A DNA stretch of 64,000 nt, taken from sequence record OP292222.1; one strand, 5' to 3'. Of this stretch, positions 3,222 to 23,352 are shown one piece after another (position 1 is the stretch's first letter; each line of letters opens with the position of its first letter). Source of the DNA: Escherichia phage Esco_phi_B-01. The position numbers and the translations under genes are program-made. The notes under the pieces are model-generated. The model made no database searches and had not been told where the DNA came from. It saw nothing but the letters and a program-made list of their open reading frames with translations.

Positions 3222-4890
3222 GTTAAAAAAAGTAACGTATAAAAATATTATGTCGGTAGGGCAGCAGCCCATTACAATCCAACTTGACAAGGTCCAAAAG
3301 ACCTTAGTCACTGGTAAAAATGGTGCAGGGAAATCAACATTCCTTGAAGCTGTAACATTTGCTCTGTTCGGTAAGCCTTTTCGTGATGTTAAGAAAGGGC
3401 AGTTGATTAACTCAAGTAACAAGAAAGACCTTTTGGTCGAACTGTGGATGGAATATGATGGCAAAGAATACTATATCAAACGCGGGCAAAAACCCAACGT
3501 TTTTGAAATCTCTTGTGACGGTGAACGTCTTGATGAATCTGCCAGCAGTAAAGACTTCCAAGCGGAATTTGAACAGCTTATCGGAATGTCCTATGCAAGC
3601 TTCAAACAAATTGTCGTACTCGGCACAGCTGGATATACCCCTTTTATGGGCCTATCCACTCCTGCAAGAAGAAAACTCGTCGAAGACCTCTTAGAGGTTT
3701 CTGTATTAGCGGATATGGATAAGTTAAACAAATCTTTGATTCGTGAGACTAATAGCCAAATCCAAGTAATAGACGTTAAGCAAGATTCTATTACCCAACA
3801 AATTAAAATTTATAATGACAACGAAGAACGTCAACGTAAATTATCTGGCGAAAACGCTGCCCGTCTACAATTAATGTATGATGAGCTCGTTAAAGAAGCC
3901 AGGACTGCGAAGGCGAGCATAGAATCCCTGACTGATGAATTACTCAATGTTATCGTAGATGATGACCCTAGCGACTCCATGAGTGACCTGAGTAATAAAG
4001 GATTTGCAATCAAAAATGATATGGCGACCTTTACAAAGGTGGTTAAGTTATACGAAACTGGTGGTCACTGCCCTACGTGTATGCAAGGGTTAGAAGAGCA
4101 TGGTAATATCCTTACTAAAATTAAGGATAAAAACTTTGAGCTTCAAAAATCTTTGGATAAGATTAATGAGCAATACCAAGAGCTCAAGCTCATTAAAGAC
4201 CAAGTAACCGAACAACGCAATAAAGCGTTGGCTATTAAATCTCAGATAGCTACTCATAAGCAGCAAGCCATTACTGCTGTAGAGAAAGCCAAAAAGGTTA
4301 AGGTATTAATTGACCAAGCAGCAGCTGAGTTCGTAAGTAATGCCGAAGAGATTGCTACGCTTCAAGCAGAGCTTGATAAAATCGTCTCTACCAAATCGTC
4401 CTTGGTAATGGAAAAATATCATCGTGGAATTCTGACAGAAATGTTGAAGGATACTGGTATTAAAGGTTCCATTATTAAGAAATACATTCCTATCTTTAAT
4501 AAGCAGATTAATTCTTATTTGAAGATTATGGAAGCGGACTACGTCTTTACCCTAGACGAAGAATTCAATGAGACGATTAAATCACGTGGACGTGAAGACT
4601 TTAGTTATGCTTCATTTTCACAGGGTGAGAAAGCACGTATTGATATAGCACTTCTTTTTACATGGCGCGATATTGCTTCTAAGGTATCAGGTGTTAATAT
4701 CAGCACGTTAATTCTTGATGAAGTTTTTGATAGTGCAACTGACGCTGAAGGCGTTAAGAGCATTGCAACCATCTTGAATAGCCTTGAGGATACGAACGTG
4801 TTCATTATCTCTCACCGAGACCATGACCCACAAGCTTATGGCCAACATCTTCAAATGAAGAAAGTTGGGCGATTCACGGTGTTAGAATGA
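3208..4890 (+). CDS. 46: gp46 recombination ATPase subunit (Rad50/SbcC-like)
   Basis: Walker A GKNGAGKST, coiled-coil middle with CPTC zinc hook, C-terminal LILDEVFD Walker B; start chosen at MKTFKL by alignment to T4. Confidence 0.9.
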   Translation: MKTFKLKKVTYKNIMSVGQQPITIQLDKVQKTLVTGKNGAGKSTFLEAVTFALFGKPFRDVKKGQLINSSNKKDLLVELWMEYDGKEYYIKRGQKPNVFEISCDGERLDESASSKDFQAEFEQLIGMSYASFKQIVVLGTAGYTPFMGLSTPARRKLVEDLLEVSVLADMDKLNKSLIRETNSQIQVIDVKQDSITQQIKIYNDNEERQRKLSGENAARLQLMYDELVKEARTAKASIESLTDELLNVIVDDDPSDSMSDLSNKGFAIKNDMATFTKVVKLYETGGHCPTCMQGLEEHGNILTKIKDKNFELQKSLDKINEQYQELKLIKDQVTEQRNKALAIKSQIATHKQQAITAVEKAKKVKVLIDQAAAEFVSNAEEIATLQAELDKIVSTKSSLVMEKYHRGILTEMLKDTGIKGSIIKKYIPIFNKQINSYLKIMEADYVFTLDEEFNETIKSRGREDFSYASFSQGEKARIDIALLFTWRDIASKVSGVNISTLILDEVFDSATDAEGVKSIATILNSLEDTNVFIISHRDHDPQAYGQHLQMKKVGRFTVLE

Positions 4891-15317: not shown

Positions 15318-16207
15318 GTTTGTTTATCGTTCCTATTTTCAGTATGCGTAGTTACGAAACAGGTGAATATGCCGTCCTTAAGGACGGCAATTTTCAACTC
15401 CATTTAAATCGTGCTCGTCCAGGTGATTATCTGGCTTATCCTAGAAATTCGAGCGATATCAAAGAATGCATTGAATTATTCCCGGAACTGAATTTCGTAC
15501 CACTTTGGTATAAAGAAAATGCTTATGAAACCCGTAAACATTTCTGGTCTGAAAATGAGTTTGTAGTCGATTCACTAATCGAATACTACGATTGCTCAGG
15601 ACTGGTAACTGATATCACCGGTTATGATGGTGCTCACACTGTACAATTCAACTTTAATATCACAATGGACCCTGAAGTTCCTCGTTATTATATCGACGAG
15701 TTCATTGATATTGATGTGGCTTCAGTTGAACGTTCACTTTATACTACAGTCCTGAATCAATGCCAGAAAGACGTCCTGGTGTCACGAGGTGCATCCTCTG
15801 ATAAGATTTTTGTAGACCAAAAGGTAATTAATCCTGCAGTAATTGAGCGTTACTCTGAAGGTCTAGCGCCTATTAAAATTGATGGTATTTTCCATCCATT
15901 CCGTATTTCGGATAAGTGCTATCAATTCGAAAGAGTTGTAGACCAAGCTGCCGCTGAAGGTGCTCGTCTTTATATCACTGACCCGAATGATTCATTTAAG
16001 CGTGAAGACTATCGTCCTGATGTAGAGATTATTAAATTCAAACCGAGTAAGGTTGAATATTATCAAATTCTGAAATCAAGACCACATATCATTTATCATG
16101 AGAACCCAGGTTTAGTATTCCATCCTGGTCTGGCTGAATTCATTTATTTCGGTGCCAATATTCATTCTGAATACGAAATGCCACGTTATGAGGACGTAGT
16201 ATGCTAG
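15314..16207 (+). CDS. hypothetical protein in the beta-glucosyltransferase position; candidate hmC glycosyltransferase
   Basis: 297 aa, coupled to gene 42 (ATGA), no recognisable similarity to T4 beta-gt; function inferred from position and operon context only. Confidence 0.45.
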   Translation: MSLFIVPIFSMRSYETGEYAVLKDGNFQLHLNRARPGDYLAYPRNSSDIKECIELFPELNFVPLWYKENAYETRKHFWSENEFVVDSLIEYYDCSGLVTDITGYDGAHTVQFNFNITMDPEVPRYYIDEFIDIDVASVERSLYTTVLNQCQKDVLVSRGASSDKIFVDQKVINPAVIERYSEGLAPIKIDGIFHPFRISDKCYQFERVVDQAAAEGARLYITDPNDSFKREDYRPDVEIIKFKPSKVEYYQILKSRPHIIYHENPGLVFHPGLAEFIYFGANIHSEYEMPRYEDVVC

Positions 16208-16332
16208 GTCCTCTATTGCTTTTTATAGGTTTGTTATTATTCTCTTTCGGAGCCTTGCTATTACTAGTGTGGCTCGAGAAACGAGAAGTTCGGAAGATAG
16301 TCGATAAGGCTATCAACCGAGGAATTAAGTAA
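16201..16332 (+). CDS. small membrane peptide (43 aa, one TM plus basic tail)
   Basis: ATG overlapping the upstream stop; hydrophobic core LLLFIGLLLFSFGALLLLVWL. Confidence 0.35.
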   Translation: MLGPLLLFIGLLLFSFGALLLLVWLEKREVRKIVDKAINRGIK

Positions 16333-16357
16333 TGCTGTAGCTGTGAAGTGATATAAT
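16333..16357 (+). promoter_or_regulatory. MotA-dependent middle promoter for uvsX (TGCTGTA - 12 - TATAAT)
   Basis: MotA-box-like element with one mismatch, correct spacing to -10. Confidence 0.5.
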
Positions 16358-16409
16358 TACCCTATCTTAAAACGTGAGAAAAATATAATGATGCCTATGG
16401 AAAAATATA

Positions 16410-17582
16410 ATGTCTGATTTAAAATCCCGTTTGATTAAAGCTTCTACTTCTAAAATGACTGCCGACCTGACCAAATCTAAATTGTTTAATGGTCGTGACG
16501 AAGTTCCTACTCGTATTCCTATGCTTAATATTGCATTGGGTGGTGCGTTGAATGCAGGCTTACAATCAGGTTTGACAATCTTTGCTGCACCGTCTAAACA
16601 CTTTAAAACGTTGTTTGGATTAACTATGGTTGCGGCATATATGAAGAAATATCCAGACGCAATTTGCTTGTTCTATGACTCTGAATTCGGTGCTTCAGAA
16701 TCTTATTTCCGTTCAATGGGTGTTGACCTGGAACGTGTGGTTCATACGCCAATCCAGTCAGTCGAACAACTGAAGGTTGACATGACCAACCAATTAGAAG
16801 AAATTACTCGTGGCGAAAAGGTTATTATCTTTATCGACTCCATCGGTAACACTGCTTCTAAGAAAGAAACCGAAGATGCTTTGAACGAGAAAGTTGTAGG
16901 TGATATGACTCGTGCTAAGTCTCTGAAATCTCTGTTCCGTATCGTAACACCTTATCTGACTATCAAGGATATTCCTTGCGTAGCAATTAACCATACGGCT
17001 ATGGAAATTGGTGGAATGTATCCTAAAGAGATTATGGGTGGCGGTACTGGTATTCTGTACTCTGCTTCTACCGTATTCTTTATCTCTAAACGTCAGGTTA
17101 AAGATGGTACCGAGCTCACTGGTTATGACTTCACCCTGAAGGCCGAAAAATCTCGTACTGTTAAAGAGAAATCAACGTTCCCAATTACTGTGAACTTTGA
17201 AGGTGGTATCGACCCATTTAGTGGTCTGCTCGAAATGGCTACTGATATTGGCTTTGTTGTGAAACCTAAAGCTGGTTGGTATAATCGTGCATTCCTTGAC
17301 GAAACCACGGGTGAAATGGTTCAAGAAGAAAAATCATGGCGTGCTAAAGCTACCGATTGTGTCGAGTTCTGGGGACCGCTGTTTAAACATGCTCCATTCC
17401 GTGAAGCAATCGAGAATAAGTATAAGCTCGGTGCAATTAATTCTATTAAAGAAGTCGATGATGCGGTGAACGACCTTATTAACTCTCGTGTCTCTAAGAA
17501 CGTTGCAGTTAAATTGAGTGGCGACACTCAAAGCGCAGCTGATATCGAAAACGATTTAGAAGAGATGGATTTAGATGACTGA
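16410..17582 (+). CDS. uvsX: UvsX recombinase (RecA-like)
   Basis: N-terminus MSDLKSRLIKASTSK identical to T4 UvsX; conserved throughout. Confidence 0.95.
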   Translation: MSDLKSRLIKASTSKMTADLTKSKLFNGRDEVPTRIPMLNIALGGALNAGLQSGLTIFAAPSKHFKTLFGLTMVAAYMKKYPDAICLFYDSEFGASESYFRSMGVDLERVVHTPIQSVEQLKVDMTNQLEEITRGEKVIIFIDSIGNTASKKETEDALNEKVVGDMTRAKSLKSLFRIVTPYLTIKDIPCVAINHTAMEIGGMYPKEIMGGGTGILYSASTVFFISKRQVKDGTELTGYDFTLKAEKSRTVKEKSTFPITVNFEGGIDPFSGLLEMATDIGFVVKPKAGWYNRAFLDETTGEMVQEEKSWRAKATDCVEFWGPLFKHAPFREAIENKYKLGAINSIKEVDDAVNDLINSRVSKNVAVKLSGDTQSAADIENDLEEMDLDD

Positions 17583-17904
17583 TTTATCTGATTTAGATAA
17601 TTTTGTTAAAGATACTGAAGAGGGTCCTAGTGACCCTCGTTATTATGAGAAATCGTTAGATATAATCCGTAAGTCAATGGGTTCTGTTAAGCAGGAAATT
17701 ATGCTTACATTACCTGATGGCACTGCTCACATCGTTTATGTGATGAATATTGTTATTGAGAAAGATGGAAAAGTGTCGGTTGATTTCGGAACGCCTTCCG
17801 AAGACCGAAAAGAAGAGCTAGCGCTTCATGTAGAAAAATGTGTTACAATGCAAATACAAGAAGAACTGGATAAAATTAAATCTAAGAGGTGGTGGAAGTG
17901 GTAG
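17575..17904 (+). CDS. 40: gp40-like protein (name by position between uvsX and 41)
   Basis: 109 aa ORF overlapping both neighbours; positional assignment only. Confidence 0.5.
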   Translation: MTDLSDLDNFVKDTEEGPSDPRYYEKSLDIIRKSMGSVKQEIMLTLPDGTAHIVYVMNIVIEKDGKVSVDFGTPSEDRKEELALHVEKCVTMQIQEELDKIKSKRWWKW

Positions 17905-19328
17905 AAACTATTTTGGCTCAACTGCTAGGCAATAGTGATTATTTCACTAAGGTCTGGCCTTATATGAATGATTCTTATTTTGACCAGGGTCCGGCAAAGA
18001 CCCTTTTCAAAGAAATCAAAAAACATGTCAATGAATATAATGCGGTGCCTTCTAAAAATGCTTTGAGTATTGCATTAGATAACAGCACCCTTTCAGAAGT
18101 TGAACATCAAGGAGCTAAAGAGCTTTTAAATTCTCTGAATGCAGGCCCTGAAGACCAAGAATGGTTGGTTAAAGAGACAGAGAAATATGTTCAGAAGGCA
18201 GCGATGTATAATGCCACTTCAAAAATTATTGAAATTCAAACTAATGCCGACCTTCCGGTTGAGCAACAAAATAGAAAACTCCCAGGTATTGGTGCTATTC
18301 CAGATATCATGCGTGATGCATTATCGATTTGTTTCGATTCTGAATTAGGCCATGACTGGATGGATGACTATGAAGAACGTTTTAAAAGTTATTCTGATAA
18401 AGCACGTAAGGTTCCATTCCGTCTTAATATTCTGAATAAGATTACTAAGGGTGGCGCTGAGTTTGGTACTGAAAACGTATTGTTAGCAGGAACAAACGTA
18501 GGTAAGTCTCTGGGTCTGTGTTCATTGGCTGCTGATTACCTTCAATCCGGTTACGATGTTCTTTATATCTCCATGGAGATGGCAGAGGAAGTATGTGCTA
18601 AGCGTATCGATGCTAACCTTCTAGATGTATCACTGGATGATATTGATGATGGTCACGTCTCATGGCCTGAATATAAAGCCAAGATGGATAAGTGGCGTTC
18701 AACTGCTACTTTAGGTCGTTTAAAGATTAAACAGTATCCTACTGGTGGTGCTAATGCCGATACATTCCGTGCATTATTAAACGAATACAAGCTCAAACAA
18801 AACTTTGTCCCACAGGTCGTTATCGTCGACTACTTGGCCATCTGTGCTTCATCCCGTACGAAAGTTTTCTCTGAAAACAGTTATGGATTGATTAAGATGG
18901 TTGCCGAAGAACTACGTGGACTTGCAGTAGAGAAGAAATTATTGTTGTGGACTGCAGCCCAGACTACTCGTGGCGCGAACGTTGCAGCCGAAATCGATAT
19001 GGCTGATATCGCTGAATCCTTTGGTATTGCACATACTGCAGACTTCATGTTAGGTGTGGTCGAGACAGAAGAGTTTGCTCAGATGGGTATGCAGATGGTT
19101 AAGCAGCTTAAATCCCGTTATGGTGATAAGAGCTACTACAACAAATTTAAGATTGGTGTTAAGAAAGGAAACCAGCGTTGGTATGAAGTTGAAGACGATT
19201 CTAACCCAGGCCCAGTGAACACCGTTCGTGAGGCTACAGGTGAAATGAATCGCCAAGCAGAGGTCAATCGTCAGTCGCGTGTTAATAGAAGCGATTTAGA
19301 CGATTTAGCAGCATCTATCAAATTTTAA
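17889..19328 (+). CDS. 41: gp41 replicative DNA helicase (DnaB-like)
   Basis: GTG start aligning MVEVV.. to T4 MVEII..; Walker A GTNVGKS; C-terminus like T4 gp41. Confidence 0.93.
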   Translation: MVEVVETILAQLLGNSDYFTKVWPYMNDSYFDQGPAKTLFKEIKKHVNEYNAVPSKNALSIALDNSTLSEVEHQGAKELLNSLNAGPEDQEWLVKETEKYVQKAAMYNATSKIIEIQTNADLPVEQQNRKLPGIGAIPDIMRDALSICFDSELGHDWMDDYEERFKSYSDKARKVPFRLNILNKITKGGAEFGTENVLLAGTNVGKSLGLCSLAADYLQSGYDVLYISMEMAEEVCAKRIDANLLDVSLDDIDDGHVSWPEYKAKMDKWRSTATLGRLKIKQYPTGGANADTFRALLNEYKLKQNFVPQVVIVDYLAICASSRTKVFSENSYGLIKMVAEELRGLAVEKKLLLWTAAQTTRGANVAAEIDMADIAESFGIAHTADFMLGVVETEEFAQMGMQMVKQLKSRYGDKSYYNKFKIGVKKGNQRWYEVEDDSNPGPVNTVREATGEMNRQAEVNRQSRVNRSDLDDLAASIKF

Positions 19329-19349
19329 GGAGCTTCGGCTCCTTTTTTG
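19328..19349 (+). terminator. intrinsic terminator (aggagc-ttcg-gctcct + T6)
   Basis: UUCG-loop hairpin plus T run immediately after gene 41. Confidence 0.65.
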
Positions 19350-19357
19350 TTTTAAGG

Positions 19358-19386
19358 GTTTACTTCTCCTGTAGGCATGATACTAT
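19358..19386 (+). promoter_or_regulatory. T4-type early promoter (GTTTAC - 17 - TGaTACTAT)
   Basis: consensus -35/-10 and conserved leader atagacctgtcaactaatggag. Confidence 0.65.
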
Positions 19387-19412
19387 AGACCTGTCAACTA
19401 ATGGAGAACAAA

Positions 19413-19730
19413 ATGAAAACCATCGACTGTAAAGCGGAATATAAAGTGTATTACCATGGAAGTTGTAGTGTTGCTAATATTGGTAATATGCTTTGTCCTC
19501 CTGAGGAAACAGGAGTTCTGTCTGAAACTGGTCGTAAGAAAAACCTGAACCGTGTGTTCTTTACTGAAGATATTGGTTTGGCTAAGATTTATGCTGGCCG
19601 AGCTGCTCGTTCGGTGGGAGGAGAACCTCGTCTTTATCGTGTAATTGCTCCGGTAGATGTGGTTTGTTTAAATGATACCAAAGGCGCTACGGTTTATCAC
19701 GCTGAATGGGCCTTCTGTGAGGAAATCTAA
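19413..19730 (+). CDS. hypothetical protein (105 aa) with HGS...Y...E spacing
   Basis: ORF track; start moved to the ATG that follows RBS ggaga. Confidence 0.5.
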   Translation: MKTIDCKAEYKVYYHGSCSVANIGNMLCPPEETGVLSETGRKKNLNRVFFTEDIGLAKIYAGRAARSVGGEPRLYRVIAPVDVVCLNDTKGATVYHAEWAFCEEI

Positions 19731-19934
19731 ATGTTTAAATTAGAAATCGTAGTGTTTATTGGTTGGTTTGAAAATGGTAATATGTTTACCAAAGAAACTG
19801 CGCTGGATGTTAGTGACCAAAAAATGATTGAATGGGTTACAGTGCAGTATGCAGAAGTGAATAATGCACTGGTGAAAGCCTTTGTTAATGACAATAAAGT
19901 TTTTGAATATGATGCCCGCATTGAGGAAATCTAA
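19731..19934 (+). CDS. dmd: Dmd-like antitoxin (inhibitor of RnlA/LsoA toxins)
   Basis: VVFIGWFENGNMFTKE...QYAEVNNALVKAF matches remembered T4 Dmd (VVFMGWFKNESMFTKE...QYAEVNKALVKAF). Confidence 0.6.
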   Translation: MFKLEIVVFIGWFENGNMFTKETALDVSDQKMIEWVTVQYAEVNNALVKAFVNDNKVFEYDARIEEI

Positions 19935-20075
19935 ATGGAAGAGGTTGAATGTGTAGTATGTGGTTGTTCGGTATGTGAAGACCAGGCGGTATTTGATGCT
20001 TGGGACAACGCAACTTGTTTAGACTGCGATAGCGAATACGAAGAAATTGCTCATAAACATGAAGACGAGGAATAA
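19935..20075 (+). CDS. small Cys-rich zinc-ribbon protein (46 aa)
   Basis: CVVCGCSVC...CLDC four-Cys pattern; RBS gaggaaa; acidic tail. Confidence 0.4.
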   Translation: MEEVECVVCGCSVCEDQAVFDAWDNATCLDCDSEYEEIAHKHEDEE

Positions 20076-20315
20076 ATGAATATTGTATTAATGAAGCCGA
20101 CCTCTAGCTCTTTTTGGAATAAATCTTTTGGTAAGCATAATATGTTTATCCAACGCACCGTAAGCAGCTGGGAACTAGTTCTTTCAGTCGGTCACAACGA
20201 TTATGAACAAGAATACGTAGAGTTCTTCGAATTTCCTGTGAAGCCTACTAAGCGTCAGATTCGTCAGACCAAACATAAATTCCGTAAAATTTATTTGGAA
20301 GATTCATTAAAATAA
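20076..20315 (+). CDS. hypothetical protein (79 aa)
   Basis: ORF track; directly follows the upstream stop. Confidence 0.5.
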   Translation: MNIVLMKPTSSSFWNKSFGKHNMFIQRTVSSWELVLSVGHNDYEQEYVEFFEFPVKPTKRQIRQTKHKFRKIYLEDSLK

Positions 20316-20316
20316 A

Positions 20317-20346
20317 GTTTACAACGGTCTATGGTAGTGATACTAT
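20317..20346 (+). promoter_or_regulatory. T4-type early promoter (GTTTAC - 18 - TGaTACTAT)
   Basis: consensus plus conserved leader atagacctatcaactaatgaggag. Confidence 0.65.
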
Positions 20347-20374
20347 AGACCTATCAACTAATGAGGAGTTAAAA

Positions 20375-20668
20375 ATGAAAAAGTTATTAATCGCAGCAAT
20401 CCTTACAGTAGCATCATGTGGTACAGCTCCAGTTACGGCTGGATTGGATAAAGACCTTTGTGAATGGTCTATGACCGCAGACCAAGAATCAGTTGAACAT
20501 CAGATTTACGCTGATATCATGAATATCACTAAACGTGACCGTCCTGATATGGTTAAAGAAGTATCTGACCAATTGGCTTCTAGCGGTGTTATGCAGTATA
20601 ACTATGTTCTGTACTGTGATGCTAATTTCGATAACAAAAATATTGTTAAAGAGGTGATAGGTGAATAA
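20375..20668 (+). CDS. sp: Spackle-like periplasmic protein (Sp)
   Basis: 97 aa with signal peptide; DKDLCEWSMTADQ...VMQYNYVLYCD resembles remembered T4 Sp. Confidence 0.5.
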   Translation: MKKLLIAAILTVASCGTAPVTAGLDKDLCEWSMTADQESVEHQIYADIMNITKRDRPDMVKEVSDQLASSGVMQYNYVLYCDANFDNKNIVKEVIGE

Positions 20669-21101
20669 GATTAACAGAAATTTGGTTATCAAAAAGCTCC
20701 GTTGCAAAAATCCAAATGCACAAGCATACAGGATGTTTTGGAGCGACGACCACCAGTACCTGGGTTATTTTCTTGTTGATAGTGATGATAGAATTACAAT
20801 GGCCCATAAACTTCTTAACAGAGAATTAAACCATTGGCAAGAACTTATTGCGGTAAGGTCTAAATTATTTTCATGTAATGCAATGCATCAATTGGTTTAT
20901 TTTTTCGCTGAAGGTATTCCTGACAAGGTTGAGTTTGATGGATTCGAATTTAAAGATATCCACCCGGACAACGAATTGAACGACCGCGTTAATATGGATA
21001 TCCCTAGCAAGTATATCAAAAACAGTCTGTTGAAAATTCTGGAAGCTCCGGTTTATTCAATTGACGACCAGATTTTTAATGCCTTTATGAACCGAGGTTA
21101 A
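20661..21101 (+). CDS. hypothetical protein (146 aa)
   Basis: ORF track; GTG start preceded by aaagagg. Confidence 0.5.
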   Translation: MNKINRNLVIKKLRCKNPNAQAYRMFWSDDHQYLGYFLVDSDDRITMAHKLLNRELNHWQELIAVRSKLFSCNAMHQLVYFFAEGIPDKVEFDGFEFKDIHPDNELNDRVNMDIPSKYIKNSLLKILEAPVYSIDDQIFNAFMNRG

Positions 21102-21102
21102 T

Positions 21103-21294
21103 ATGACTGCAATGTGTACGGGCTCTAAGATTTCTGTATTCGAACTGTTCGAAGAATATGAAATCGTATCAAAAGACCAAGAAGCTATCCATATTATTGC
21201 CGGTGATGGCGTAACTTGGATTATCCCACTTTACCACGAAGATACATATGAAGTCACTGATGCAAATGGTGATAAAGCTATTTTCGTAATATAA
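21103..21294 (+). CDS. hypothetical protein (63 aa)
   Basis: ORF track; start 2 nt after upstream stop. Confidence 0.45.
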   Translation: MTAMCTGSKISVFELFEEYEIVSKDQEAIHIIAGDGVTWIIPLYHEDTYEVTDANGDKAIFVI

Positions 21295-21297
21295 ATA
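21290..21297 (+). promoter_or_regulatory. T4 late promoter box TATAAATA
   Basis: exact TATAAATA 14 nt upstream of the ATG at 21311. Confidence 0.45.
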
Positions 21298-21310
21298 AGG
21301 CCAGGAGCCT

Positions 21311-21472
21311 ATGAAATCTTTTAAAGAAGTTATGAACGAAGATATGGTCGCAGGCGATGCTGGTGGAAATCCATCTAATATTGCCTCCGGAACTACCTCA
21401 GGCGCAGTCGTCAACAAAGGGCCTGAACAAATCCCATCTAAAAAGCGTAAAGAAAAATCCGAAAACGAATGA
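21311..21472 (+). CDS. small Gly/Ser-rich protein (53 aa) with basic tail
   Basis: RBS aggag; preceded by a late-promoter box. Confidence 0.4.
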   Translation: MKSFKEVMNEDMVAGDAGGNPSNIASGTTSGAVVNKGPEQIPSKKRKEKSENE

Positions 21473-21510
21473 TATAATGGCTCTATTAATTTAGAGCCCA
21501 AGGAAAAATA

Positions 21511-22539
21511 ATGTCATATGTCGATAGAGAATTTGCTGTACGTGCCTTGAATTACCAACCTAAATTCAGACAAGTAACTGGTAGTGATTTTAAATTAAAC
21601 TGTCGTTGTCGTGTATGCGGCGACTCCCAAAAGGATGAGAACAAAGCTCGATTCTGGGCCTATCCAGCCAATGACGGCTCTGTAATGCTACACTGTTTTA
21701 ACTGTGATTATTCGGCAGGAATTAAGAAGTACCTATACGAATATGAGCCTGATTTATATCGCGAATATATTCTTGAGAAACATAAAGAGCAATCGTTCGG
21801 GAGACAAGCTGCGCCTAAGGTGGAGATATCTGAAAAAATTAAAGCTAAGATGCCTGTCATTGAAAAGCTTAATTTCTGTGAACGATTAGATAGAATGCCG
21901 AAAGACCATCCTATTATTAAGTATGTAACTCTGCGGTGCATTCCTGAAAATAAATGGAATCGGTTATGGTTTACTAAAGAATGGCCTGCATTGGTGAATT
22001 CTGTTAATCCAGGGACATATTCCAAAGAAATGCCTGAACCACGTTTGGTTATTCCAATTTTCAATAAGAATAAACAAATTGAAAGTTTTCAGGGCCGAGC
22101 CTTACGTAAAGATGCTCCACAAAAATATATTACAATAAAAGCTCATGACCAAGCTACAAAAATATATGGAATGGATACAGTTGACGAACGTCAATTGGTG
22201 TGGGTAATGGAAGGTCCTATTGATTCATTATTCGTACCTAATGCAATAGCAATTACTGGTGGGTCGTTGGACTTGGCTATGGTTCCATGTAAAGAAACTC
22301 GTGCCTGGGTAATGGACAATGAACCCCGTCATCCTGACACAATTAAGCGTATGCAACGATTAGTTGATGCCGGCGAAAGGGTCCTATTCTGGGACAAGGC
22401 CCCATGGCCTTCTAAAGATATAAATGATATGGTTATGAAAGATAAAGCTGATATAAATGATGTATTGGCATATATGAAAGCTAATATAGCCCAAGGGTTA
22501 ATGGCAAAAATGAGGCTTTCAAAATATTCTAAAATTTAG
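21511..22539 (+). CDS. 61: gp61 DNA primase
   Basis: 342 aa; zinc-ribbon CRCRVCGD...CFNC; C-terminus NIAQGLMAKMRLSKYSKI matches T4 gp61. Confidence 0.92.
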   Translation: MSYVDREFAVRALNYQPKFRQVTGSDFKLNCRCRVCGDSQKDENKARFWAYPANDGSVMLHCFNCDYSAGIKKYLYEYEPDLYREYILEKHKEQSFGRQAAPKVEISEKIKAKMPVIEKLNFCERLDRMPKDHPIIKYVTLRCIPENKWNRLWFTKEWPALVNSVNPGTYSKEMPEPRLVIPIFNKNKQIESFQGRALRKDAPQKYITIKAHDQATKIYGMDTVDERQLVWVMEGPIDSLFVPNAIAITGGSLDLAMVPCKETRAWVMDNEPRHPDTIKRMQRLVDAGERVLFWDKAPWPSKDINDMVMKDKADINDVLAYMKANIAQGLMAKMRLSKYSKI

Positions 22540-22736
22540 ACAGGAACTCCGCTAAAGAATCCAATTATGCTTAATACGTGTTCCATTGTAACCGCTGGTA
22601 AAATTACCCCTTGGCTAGCGGCTACAGGAACTACTAAAAGATTCCAAAGGAATACGTCTAGCGCAAGAAAACCTAACATCATTTTCTTGTCTTTCTTTTC
22701 AGCCAATTTCCAGATTTGGTAAAAAATACTACCCAT
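22536..22736 (-). CDS. small membrane protein (66 aa) on the opposite strand
   Basis: strong minus-strand RBS AGGAGGA 5 nt before ATG; amphipathic N-terminus then TM segment. Confidence 0.5.
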   Translation of the reverse strand: MGSIFYQIWKLAEKKDKKMMLGFLALDVFLWNLLVVPVAASQGVILPAVTMEHVLSIIGFFSGVPV

Positions 22737-22765
22737 GTTATCCTCCTGTTAAATTAATATTTATT

Positions 22766-22789
22766 CGCTTTAATCTAGCAGTTTATAAT
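22766..22789 (+). promoter_or_regulatory. MotA-type middle promoter for gene 56 (cGCTTTA - 11 - TATAAT)
   Basis: MotA-box-like element with one mismatch, -10 TATAAT. Confidence 0.4.
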
Positions 22790-22830
22790 TATCTAACTTA
22801 CTAACAAATGAATTGATAAGGAAAAATATA

Positions 22831-23352
22831 ATGGCTCATTTTAATGAATGTTCTCAACTGATTGCCGGTGCCGATAAAGCTGAAGAAGCTTATTTTAATG
22901 CTCTGATTCACGAAGATAAAGACCCTCTGCAGGTTATGCTTGATATGCAGAAATCTTTGCAGGTTCGTTTAGCTAAAGATAAGCCTGAATATAATCGTCA
23001 TCCTGATGATTTGGCCACTGCGGGTGAAGTTGTCGATTGGCTTCGCAACCAGAAAGATTATATTGATGACGAATTCCGTGAACTTCTGACTTCTCTTGGT
23101 GGTATGAGCAATGGTGAAAAAGATGCATCTGCAGTATGGAAGCCTTGGAAAGCTCAACATGCTGAACGTCGTGAAACCCTGATTAACGATTTGTCTCCTG
23201 AAGACCAGCTCGAAATTAAATTCGAAATGATTGATATTCTGCACTTTGTTCTGAATATGTTCCAGGGTCTTGGACTGACTGCTGAAGAAATCTTTAAACT
23301 GTATTATCTTAAAAATGCCGAGAACTTTGCTCGTCAAGACCGAGGTTATTAA
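22831..23352 (+). CDS. 56: gp56 dCTPase/dUTPase (MazG-like)
   Basis: MAHFNEC...DPLQVMLDMQ...IDDEFRELLTSLG...EIFKLYYLKNAENFARQDRGY closely matches T4 gp56. Confidence 0.85.
   Translation: MAHFNECSQLIAGADKAEEAYFNALIHEDKDPLQVMLDMQKSLQVRLAKDKPEYNRHPDDLATAGEVVDWLRNQKDYIDDEFRELLTSLGGMSNGEKDASAVWKPWKAQHAERRETLINDLSPEDQLEIKFEMIDILHFVLNMFQGLGLTAEEIFKLYYLKNAENFARQDRGY

Follow-up and report, generated by a model that had tools for sequence, protein, structure and literature searches.

A small phage protein encoded upstream of dmd with a predicted Arr-like ADP-ribosyltransferase fold

What is the small protein encoded directly upstream of dmd in some T4-like phages, and what might it do for them? The question was addressed for a 64,000-nt stretch of DNA from Escherichia phage Esco_phi_B-01 (sequence record OP292222.1; this whole stretch is called the window below), in which a reading of the sequence alone had picked out a product of 105 amino acids (aa). 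That reading had likened the product to the H-Y-E class of ADP-ribosyltransferases (ARTs) and had speculated about a minimal effector using nicotinamide adenine dinucleotide (NAD), or an inhibitor. The open reading frame (ORF) was confirmed, with dmd as the next gene, and the motifs YYHGS (residues 13-17), KIYAG (58-62) and YHAEW (95-99) were all found where the reading had placed them. It is highly likely that the protein has an ART fold and is homologous to the rifamycin-modifying enzyme Arr; for brevity its gene is called the ART gene here.

The ORF lies on the plus strand at 19401/19413-19730 and has two in-frame ATGs (19401 and 19413). The second was taken as the start because it has GGAG 6 nt upstream, because homologues are 105 aa long, and because the alignment to phrog_2110, a family of unknown function with 105 positions, begins at residue 5 of the 109-aa version (E 1.7e-60).

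19403-19406, plus strand: Shine-Dalgarno GGAG, 6 nt before the ATG at 19413 (from the sequence)
19413-19730, plus strand: predicted Arr-like minimal ADP-ribosyltransferase-fold gene, 105 aa plus stop (ORF, phrog_2110, AlphaFold2, Foldseek, hhalign)

Fold and homology to Arr

An AlphaFold2 model was built from 41 homologues, with a predicted local distance difference test score (pLDDT) of 85.8 and a predicted template modelling score (pTM) of 0.78. It runs from beta-1 (residues 13-18) through a loop to beta-2 (48-51), a helix (54-68) and four more strands, the last of which ends the chain. Foldseek comparison with the PDB placed the Arr structure 9IAF at the top (probability 1.0, query TM-score (TMq) 0.62, E 7e-3), and 16 of the first 17 matches were ART folds (Arr, Arr-2, pertussis toxin S1, tankyrase, typhoid toxin, ParT and RES toxin). 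Among the viral models in BFVD, the best match outside the family was a 94-aa 'Ms rifampin ADP-ribosyl transferase' (E 3e-8). The fold proposed by the sequence-only reading was thus borne out by structure prediction and fold comparison.

The same relationship emerged from sequence profiles, once distant relatives were included. When 1.84 billion representative proteins were searched exhaustively by profile, 243 relatives came to light. An alignment of the close family (A1) was compared with a wider one (A2) that takes in these distant domains. A profile search of the PDB using A1 returned nothing but L24 noise, whilst the search using A2 recovered the Arr structures 2HW2 and 9IAF by sequence alone (E 0.0011). 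The Pfam family Arr-ms was matched by 16 of the 37 A2 members, and many long relatives scored above its gathering cutoff; the matches span only positions 1-70 of the 99 in the profile. Alignment to an Arr-family alignment with hhalign gave a probability of 94.5 % and an E of 8e-8 over residues 2-84. On the strength of the A2 profile search, the Arr-ms matches and the hhalign result, we regard the homology with Arr as established.

Two results weigh against this assignment. No Foldseek match in the PDB reached E <= 0.001, and the window protein itself scored only 15 bits against Pfam Arr-ms, below the cutoff of 25. The NCBIfam model rifampin_ARR (NF033144) did not match the window protein and gave its relatives 24-26 bits against a cutoff of 130, and PADLOC found no match to DarT, CmdT or any other defence ART.

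The NAD pocket and the catalytic acid

Arr works with the triad H19-Y49-D84 (PMC8120803; bioRxiv 10.1101/2025.02.20.639278; bioRxiv 10.64898/2026.05.04.722716). Its Ala57 forms the floor of the nicotinamide pocket (bioRxiv 10.1101/2025.02.20.639278), and the loop Val32-His46, including Phe39, is a D-loop-like gate between the two substrate sites (bioRxiv 10.1101/2025.02.20.639278; 10.64898/2026.05.04.722716). The conserved segments of the phage protein that align with these elements are as follows.

19452-19463, plus strand: Y14-H15-G16-S17, the beta-1 [YF]HG[ST] motif (predicted to bind NAD, by homology)
19524-19544, plus strand: E38-T-G-R41-K-K43-N44, an invariant loop equivalent to Arr-ms E40-A-G-R43, just past the Phe39 gating (D-loop-like) loop
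19557-19565, plus strand: F49-F50-T51 of beta-2, F49 standing in place of Arr Tyr49 (the 'Y' of H-Y-D)
19581-19601, plus strand: A57-K-I-Y60-A-G-R63, the helix after beta-2, A57 corresponding to Arr A57, Y60 being a second aromatic and R63 the basic residue

Conservation was counted among 115 close homologues and, separately, among 115 distant representative domains; the counts are given in that order below. H15, which aligns with H19 of Arr-ms and H22 of Arr-2, is present in 113 and 115 sequences, and G16 in 114 and 115. In the loop, E38 and R41 are each found in 115 and 111, and among the close homologues N44 is universal and K43 is found in 114. The canonical beta-2 Tyr is replaced by a conservative aromatic, position 49 being Phe in all close homologues and Phe (109) or Tyr (6) in the distant domains; T51 follows with 115 and 112. 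On the helix, A57 is kept in 115 and 114, Y60 in 115 and 111, and R63 in 115, with Arg or Lys in 113 of the distant set. Beyond it G69 (115 and 113) and G70 (115 and 111) are nearly as constant.

The H-Y-E assignment of the sequence-only reading therefore survives in one of its three residues. H15 is indeed the beta-1 His. The Tyr of KIYAG, Y60, is invariant but is the helix-borne second aromatic, and the Glu of YHAEW, E98, is unconserved (E44/A27/D21/S10/K6/N3 in the close set, P44/D38/S11/E8 in the distant one). Judged from these alignments, the whole NAD-pocket half of Arr is evidently kept, and the catalytic Asp motif of Arr and all of its rifamycin-binding elements are evidently gone. The Arr alpha-2 helix is missing, since the chain stops at residue 105, where beta-6 of Arr ends, and the model has no C-terminal helix.

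The missing acid bears most directly on whether the protein is an enzyme. The confident part of the Arr alignment ends just ahead of the invariant Arr motif EDDPN, which is absent from the phage protein. When the hhalign alignment is forced further, at low confidence, the two Asp residues of Arr are matched by C85 and L86, the latter at the Asp84 position, and the Arr 'PNLTN' lid segment falls in a 5-residue deletion. E38 is the only acidic residue conserved throughout the family, and is for that reason the candidate for the role of Asp84.

Several observations weigh against a catalytic function. No conserved acidic residue was found at or near the Asp84 position, which in this low-confidence alignment is occupied by L/M86, and in the wide family there is no conserved acid past residue 53. 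D88 is acidic in 97 of the 115 close homologues but is Asp in only 25 of the 115 distant domains, and E103, present in 113 close homologues, is replaced by Ile or Val in the distant domains, so the conservation of both is restricted to T4-like phages. The loop bearing E38 has the lowest confidence in the model (pLDDT 65-75), which makes its placement over the pocket a conjecture. With no conserved acid at the Asp84 position catalysis is unproven, and the conservation pattern would agree equally well with a role confined to ligand binding.

Distribution, conservation and genomic setting

The ART gene was found by tblastn in 609 phage records from about 10 host genera (Escherichia 215, Klebsiella 116, Acinetobacter 68, Aeromonas 62, Enterobacter 29, Shigella 17, Cronobacter 14, Vibrio 14, and others). 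The window protein is 99-100 % identical to hypothetical proteins of the Dhakavirus-type phages VR5, IME341 and EcWhh-1 and of Salmonella phage SHP1, and a few GenBank depositors already use the name 'putative ADP-ribosyl transferase'. A scan of one genome for each of 185,579 bacterial and archaeal species gave five ART loci, three of them on T4-sized contigs of 167-178 kb, and no toxin-immunity context at any of the five. The family is essentially phage-borne.

Two Patescibacteria genomes (the candidate phyla radiation, CPR) hold solo homologues of 143-148 aa with 45-47 % identity (L078 4902-5348; L079 4923-5354), one of them adjoining an insertion sequence (IS)-type rve integrase; no other clearly cellular copy turned up among the species genomes scanned. 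Separately, an identical or near-identical gene in KY979109.1 (58369-58683) and MW233709.1 (42061-42375) is labelled 'clamp loader subunit DNA polymerase', evidently a mis-annotation.

The conservation of the protein is unusual for an accessory gene. At loci including L034, L037, L014 and L015 it is 69-83 % identical to the window protein where the helicase gp41 and the primase gp61 are 51-68 % identical. The values are 75 % against 55 % for gp41 at an Acinetobacter phage locus, 81-83 % against 68 % (gp41) and 66 % (gp61) at Yersinia-phage-like loci, and 73 % against 51-52 % for both in another comparison between distant T4-like phages. Thus, the gene appears to be under strong purifying selection and is evidently better conserved than the replicative helicase and primase.

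Many of the distant relatives are domains within proteins of 250-3,924 aa; the window protein is a solo domain. Partner domains include ART-PolyVal, NUDIX, GNAT, Toprim, CHAP, LPD23 and DUF7178. These large proteins are polyvalent proteins, injected effectors for which the ART-PolyVal domain was described with no mention of an Arr-like module (Iyer et al. 2017, PMC5512222). This context indicates an effector that would be deployed at the onset of infection. One relative, P0149, is located among phage replication and nucleotide-metabolism genes.

Some architectures are worth recording. P0185 (954 aa) joins a lambda-type portal, an Arr-like ART and a 2H/Acb1-like phosphoesterase, P0144 (1955 aa) has ART-PolyVal, an Arr-like ART and NUDIX, and in P0180 (479 aa) ART-PolyVal is followed directly by the Arr-like ART. 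The occurrence of two different ART families, ART-PolyVal and Arr-like, within one polypeptide is thus recurrent.

The surroundings of the ART gene are T4-like, a plus-strand region of replication and early genes in which it follows the helicase gene 41.

16410-17582, plus strand: uvsX
17575-17904, plus strand: gene 40
17889-19328, plus strand: helicase gene 41
19327-19344, plus strand: terminator-like hairpin AAGGAGC-TTCG-GCTCCTT plus T-run, straddling the gene 41 stop (by scan, a 7-bp stem with 4 G-C pairs)
19358-19386, plus strand: T4-early-type promoter-like element, GTTTAC, 17 nt, TACTAT (read by eye)
19731-19934, plus strand: dmd, 67 aa (Pfam Dmd E 5e-20, phrog_2102 5e-32), with its own GAGG within the 3' end of the ART gene
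21511-22539, plus strand: primase gene 61

In T4, the 58 nt after gene 41 hold GTTTAC-18-TATAGT and are followed by dmd, with no ART gene. In the window the order is hairpin, GTTTAC-17-TACTAT, ART and dmd, so that the ART gene sits between the early-type promoter-like element and dmd. The terminator-like hairpin and the promoter-like element, arranged as in T4, suggest that the ART gene would be transcribed early, together with dmd. Speaking against this, the promoter-like element scores below the threshold of a sigma-70 scan.

Downstream of dmd come a 46-aa Cys-rich ORF, a 61.4-like DUF7279 gene, spackle (sp), a 146-aa ORF, two small ORFs and gene 61. The sequence-only reading had placed the ART gene in an anti-defence neighbourhood. 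This holds for the window, with its dmd, sp and AdfA-like tail (below), but not as a rule, as the gene occupies quite different neighbourhoods in other phages. In Acinetobacter phage 133 it lies between genes 41 and 61.1 and is followed by an unrelated 157-aa protein, and in Aeromonas phage Aes508 and Klebsiella phage Matisse it is found elsewhere, a few genes upstream of srd.

An Rfam scan of 16000-23000 gave no match, and composition gave no hint of a recent foreign origin (GC content of the ART gene 0.42, against 0.35-0.44 around it). The 46-aa ORF (19935-20075, plus strand) encodes a zinc-ribbon-like protein with CVVCGCSVC...CLDC and belongs to phrog_13952, a family of unknown function. 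The 146-aa ORF (20661-21101, plus strand), between sp and gene 61 in the 61.x cluster, belongs to phrog_8539, also of unknown function; its similarity to AdfA (anti-DarT factor A; PF23813 E 0.0067, below cutoff; phrog_3781, phrog_4122) is confined to the last 15 residues, which match the AdfA C-terminus. This could be a counter-defence gene of the AdfA kind, either divergent or recombinant.

Possible functions and known systems

We favour, at an even chance, an NAD-dependent effector of the immediate-early class that acts on its own and has a minimal Arr-like ART core, consisting of beta-1, the conserved loop, beta-2, the helix and beta-3 to beta-6 and nothing more. As soon as infection begins, a T4-type early promoter would drive its gene together with dmd, and the protein would bind NAD+ in a classical His-aromatic pocket. 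There, H15 and the G16 backbone would hold the ribose and the nicotinamide amide, F49 and Y60 would sandwich the nicotinamide, and A57 would form the pocket floor. The invariant E38-x-G-R41-K-K43-N44 loop would shut over the dinucleotide, and E38 may supply the acid. ADP-ribose would then be passed to a host macromolecule or metabolite conserved across Gammaproteobacteria, a breadth suggested by the unusually high conservation of the protein, and the purpose would be host takeover or counter-defence, as with T4 Alt, ModA and ModB. The NAD-pocket residues are invariant across more than 200 sequences, and no fixed partner gene was seen among 68 IMG/VR loci. Binding of NAD+ or a close derivative is probable; catalytic activity could go either way.

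The chief rival, which we think unlikely, is a non-catalytic binder of NAD+ or ADP-ribose ligands. It would soak up an NAD-derived immune signal like a sponge, or serve as a decoy for, or an inhibitor of, a host defence protein that depends on NAD. Invariant ligand-pocket residues without a canonical catalytic acid are what it would predict, about 100 aa is a typical size for phage sponge proteins, and in the window the ART gene lies among anti-defence genes. However, mono-ART activity is retained by several PARPs of eukaryotes that have the H-Y-[I/L/Y] motif and no Glu (bioRxiv 10.1101/2025.02.20.639278). Moreover, core-gene-like conservation across many hosts and reuse of the domain beside enzymes in polyvalent proteins fit an enzyme better than a binder co-evolving with patchy defence systems.

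A more specific form of the enzymatic reading, which must be counted as rather improbable, is a new catalytic variety of ART in which the beta-5 acid has been replaced by E38 of the gating loop. Its acceptor would be no protein but a conserved small molecule, a nucleotide second messenger or RNA, and its action would disarm a host response straight after infection. If true, this would be the first Arr-type counter-defence enzyme of T-even-like phages and would explain why the protein is more conserved than the replicative helicase.

As another sub-case of the favoured effector, but one that seems quite improbable, the protein could be a nucleic-acid-directed ART or a 2'-phosphotransferase-like enzyme (like DarT, CmdT or Tpt1) modifying either RNA or DNA in the course of infection. 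Three invariant basic residues (R41, K43 and R63) lie beside the pocket, there is a weak BFVD fold match to a putative RNA 2'-phosphotransferase (E 0.033), the P0185 relative is fused to a 2H phosphoesterase, and RNA substrates have been speculated upon by Iyer et al. (PMC9503650). On the other side are the lack of any PADLOC match to DarT, CmdT or other defence ARTs, and the absence of Tpt1 and DarT structures from the top 50 PDB fold matches. Tpt1/KptA is two-lobed, with an N-terminal RNA-binding lobe and an ART lobe; the model is instead a single 105-aa lobe. Its net charge is about 0 (13 Lys/Arg against 13 Asp/Glu), and the basic residues may simply bind the NAD diphosphate.

Under a fourth explanation the ART protein would be a toxin that may act on RNA, and Dmd, encoded next to it, would be its cognate antitoxin in a type II-like pair. 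Iyer, Burroughs, Anantharaman and Aravind (2022; Viruses 14:1977, PMC9503650) proposed 'p0068-family ART + Dmd' as a toxin-antitoxin system of Escherichia, Shigella and Salmonella phages, using sequence analysis only, and assigned the p0068-family ART to the H-Y-[EDQ] clade. The ART and dmd genes of the window are very probably this p0068-Dmd gene pair, for which the published text gives no accession. The arrangement is suggestive: the stop codon of the ART gene (TAA, 19728-19730) abuts the dmd ATG at 19731 with no gap, the two share a putative promoter, several phages of Escherichia, Shigella and Salmonella have the same pairing, and Dmd is a proven direct inhibitor of the toxins RnlA and LsoA (PMC9503650).

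However, in only 10 of the 68 IMG/VR loci is Dmd immediately downstream. Elsewhere the slot 3' of the ART gene holds at least 20 unrelated proteins or nothing, its occupants including the 46-aa Cys-rich protein, signal-peptide proteins, a 55-60-aa membrane protein and a GIY-YIG endonuclease, among others. Loci L016 and L017 have the same identities to the ART, gp41, gp40 and Sp of the window, yet after the ART gene the first has dmd and the second a 188-aa signal-peptide protein. In L013, L018, L021 and L022 dmd is simply absent, and a homologue of the 46-aa Cys-rich ORF follows the ART gene directly. A tblastn search with Dmd (E <= 1e-3) found 797 records, essentially from Escherichia, Shigella, Yersinia, Salmonella and Citrobacter phages, with at most two for any other genus; the ART-bearing Klebsiella (116), Acinetobacter (68), Aeromonas (62) and Vibrio (14) records thus come from host groups nearly devoid of Dmd. 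Conversely, at least 380 Escherichia phage records, T4 included, have dmd but no ART gene, and an addiction module would be of no obvious use to a strictly lytic phage.

Taken together, ART and dmd appear as independently distributed neighbours in a plastic early region, and dmd is evidently a neighbour and no obligate partner of the ART gene. The toxin-antitoxin reading is very unlikely and, to judge from gene content, poorly supported, although it is still conceivable for the subset of phages that carry both genes.

The slot directly 3' of the ART gene is itself a gene-swap site, L016 and L017 differing from position 3289, and in L048 (3329-4105) it holds a GIY-YIG homing-endonuclease-like ORF. 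Dmd has 67 aa in the window and 60 aa in T4 (L080 2486-2668), with residues 7-63 aligning at ~58 % identity; given this low identity, dmd is diverging much faster than the adjacent ART gene.

That the protein is a genuine Arr orthologue, ADP-ribosylating rifamycins and so protecting the infected host, is practically dismissed: Arr is its closest solved structure and closest sequence family, but alpha-1, the C-terminal helix alpha-2 and the Lys91 lid make up the rifamycin cleft of Arr (PMC8120803; bioRxiv 10.64898/2026.05.04.722716), and the phage protein lacks alpha-2, the C-terminus and the lid loop, which leaves an open active site that is not rifamycin-specific, keeps only the His of the triad (its Tyr being Phe, and EDDPN absent), matches Arr-ms only in part and does not match rifampin_ARR.

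The ART nature of the protein was already known from some GenBank records and from the computational description of 2022. A literature search found no experimental study of the family; the HIDEN-SEQ preprint, the Silas accessory-gene screen and the DarTG/AdfN paper are silent on the gene. New here are the homology with Arr and the residue map, the loss of the Arr catalytic Asp and substrate-binding parts, the universal loop Glu, a conservation greater than core genes show, the reuse of the domain in polyvalent and portal-fused proteins, and the evidence against an obligate partnership with Dmd. The published toxin-antitoxin inference is corrected to the extent that the pairing is facultative. 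If active, the protein would be a fourth, unrelated ART type of T4-like phages beside Alt, ModA and ModB. Its gene is carried by hundreds of phages that are candidates for therapy and infect Escherichia, Klebsiella, Acinetobacter, Aeromonas or Vibrio. With its 105 aa the protein ranks with the smallest known ART cores and is hence a convenient object for asking what a minimal NAD+-activating scaffold requires, whilst its practical value is limited until a target is found.

The closest known system is Arr (PF12120, Arr-ms; PDB 2HW2, 9IAF, 9IBA), the smallest known ART type. Both share the order beta1-loop-beta2-helix-beta3, the motifs [FY]HG[ST], E-x-G-R and [VI]-aromatic-[FI]-[ST], and the pocket-floor Ala. 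Unlike Arr, the phage family has an invariant Phe for Tyr49, no EDDPN, no lid loop and no C-terminal rifamycin-binding helix; its gating loop is longer and carries invariant basic residues, and it is phage-borne. The p0068 ART + Dmd pair (PMC9503650) is alike in having the ART directly upstream of dmd and differs in that the pairing here is facultative (10 of 68 loci), with no conserved E/D/Q located.

ART-PolyVal (PF18760, Tox-ART-HYD2 clade; PMC5512222) is an effector domain of giant phage and conjugative-element proteins that shares polypeptides with the Arr-like relatives P0134, P0139, P0144 and P0180. As an ART family it stands apart, having a clear H-Y-D triad, and the window protein also differs from it in being a solo domain. 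In the role proposed here, the nearest parallels are T4 Alt, ModA and ModB, phage ARTs that act at the very start of infection on conserved host proteins. A few genes downstream of the Arr-like gene, Klebsiella and Aeromonas phages have srd, which in T4 presumably adjoins modA and modB. Alt and the Mod proteins nevertheless belong to the R-S-E clade, are 2-6 times larger and have no sequence relationship to the phage Arr-like ART.

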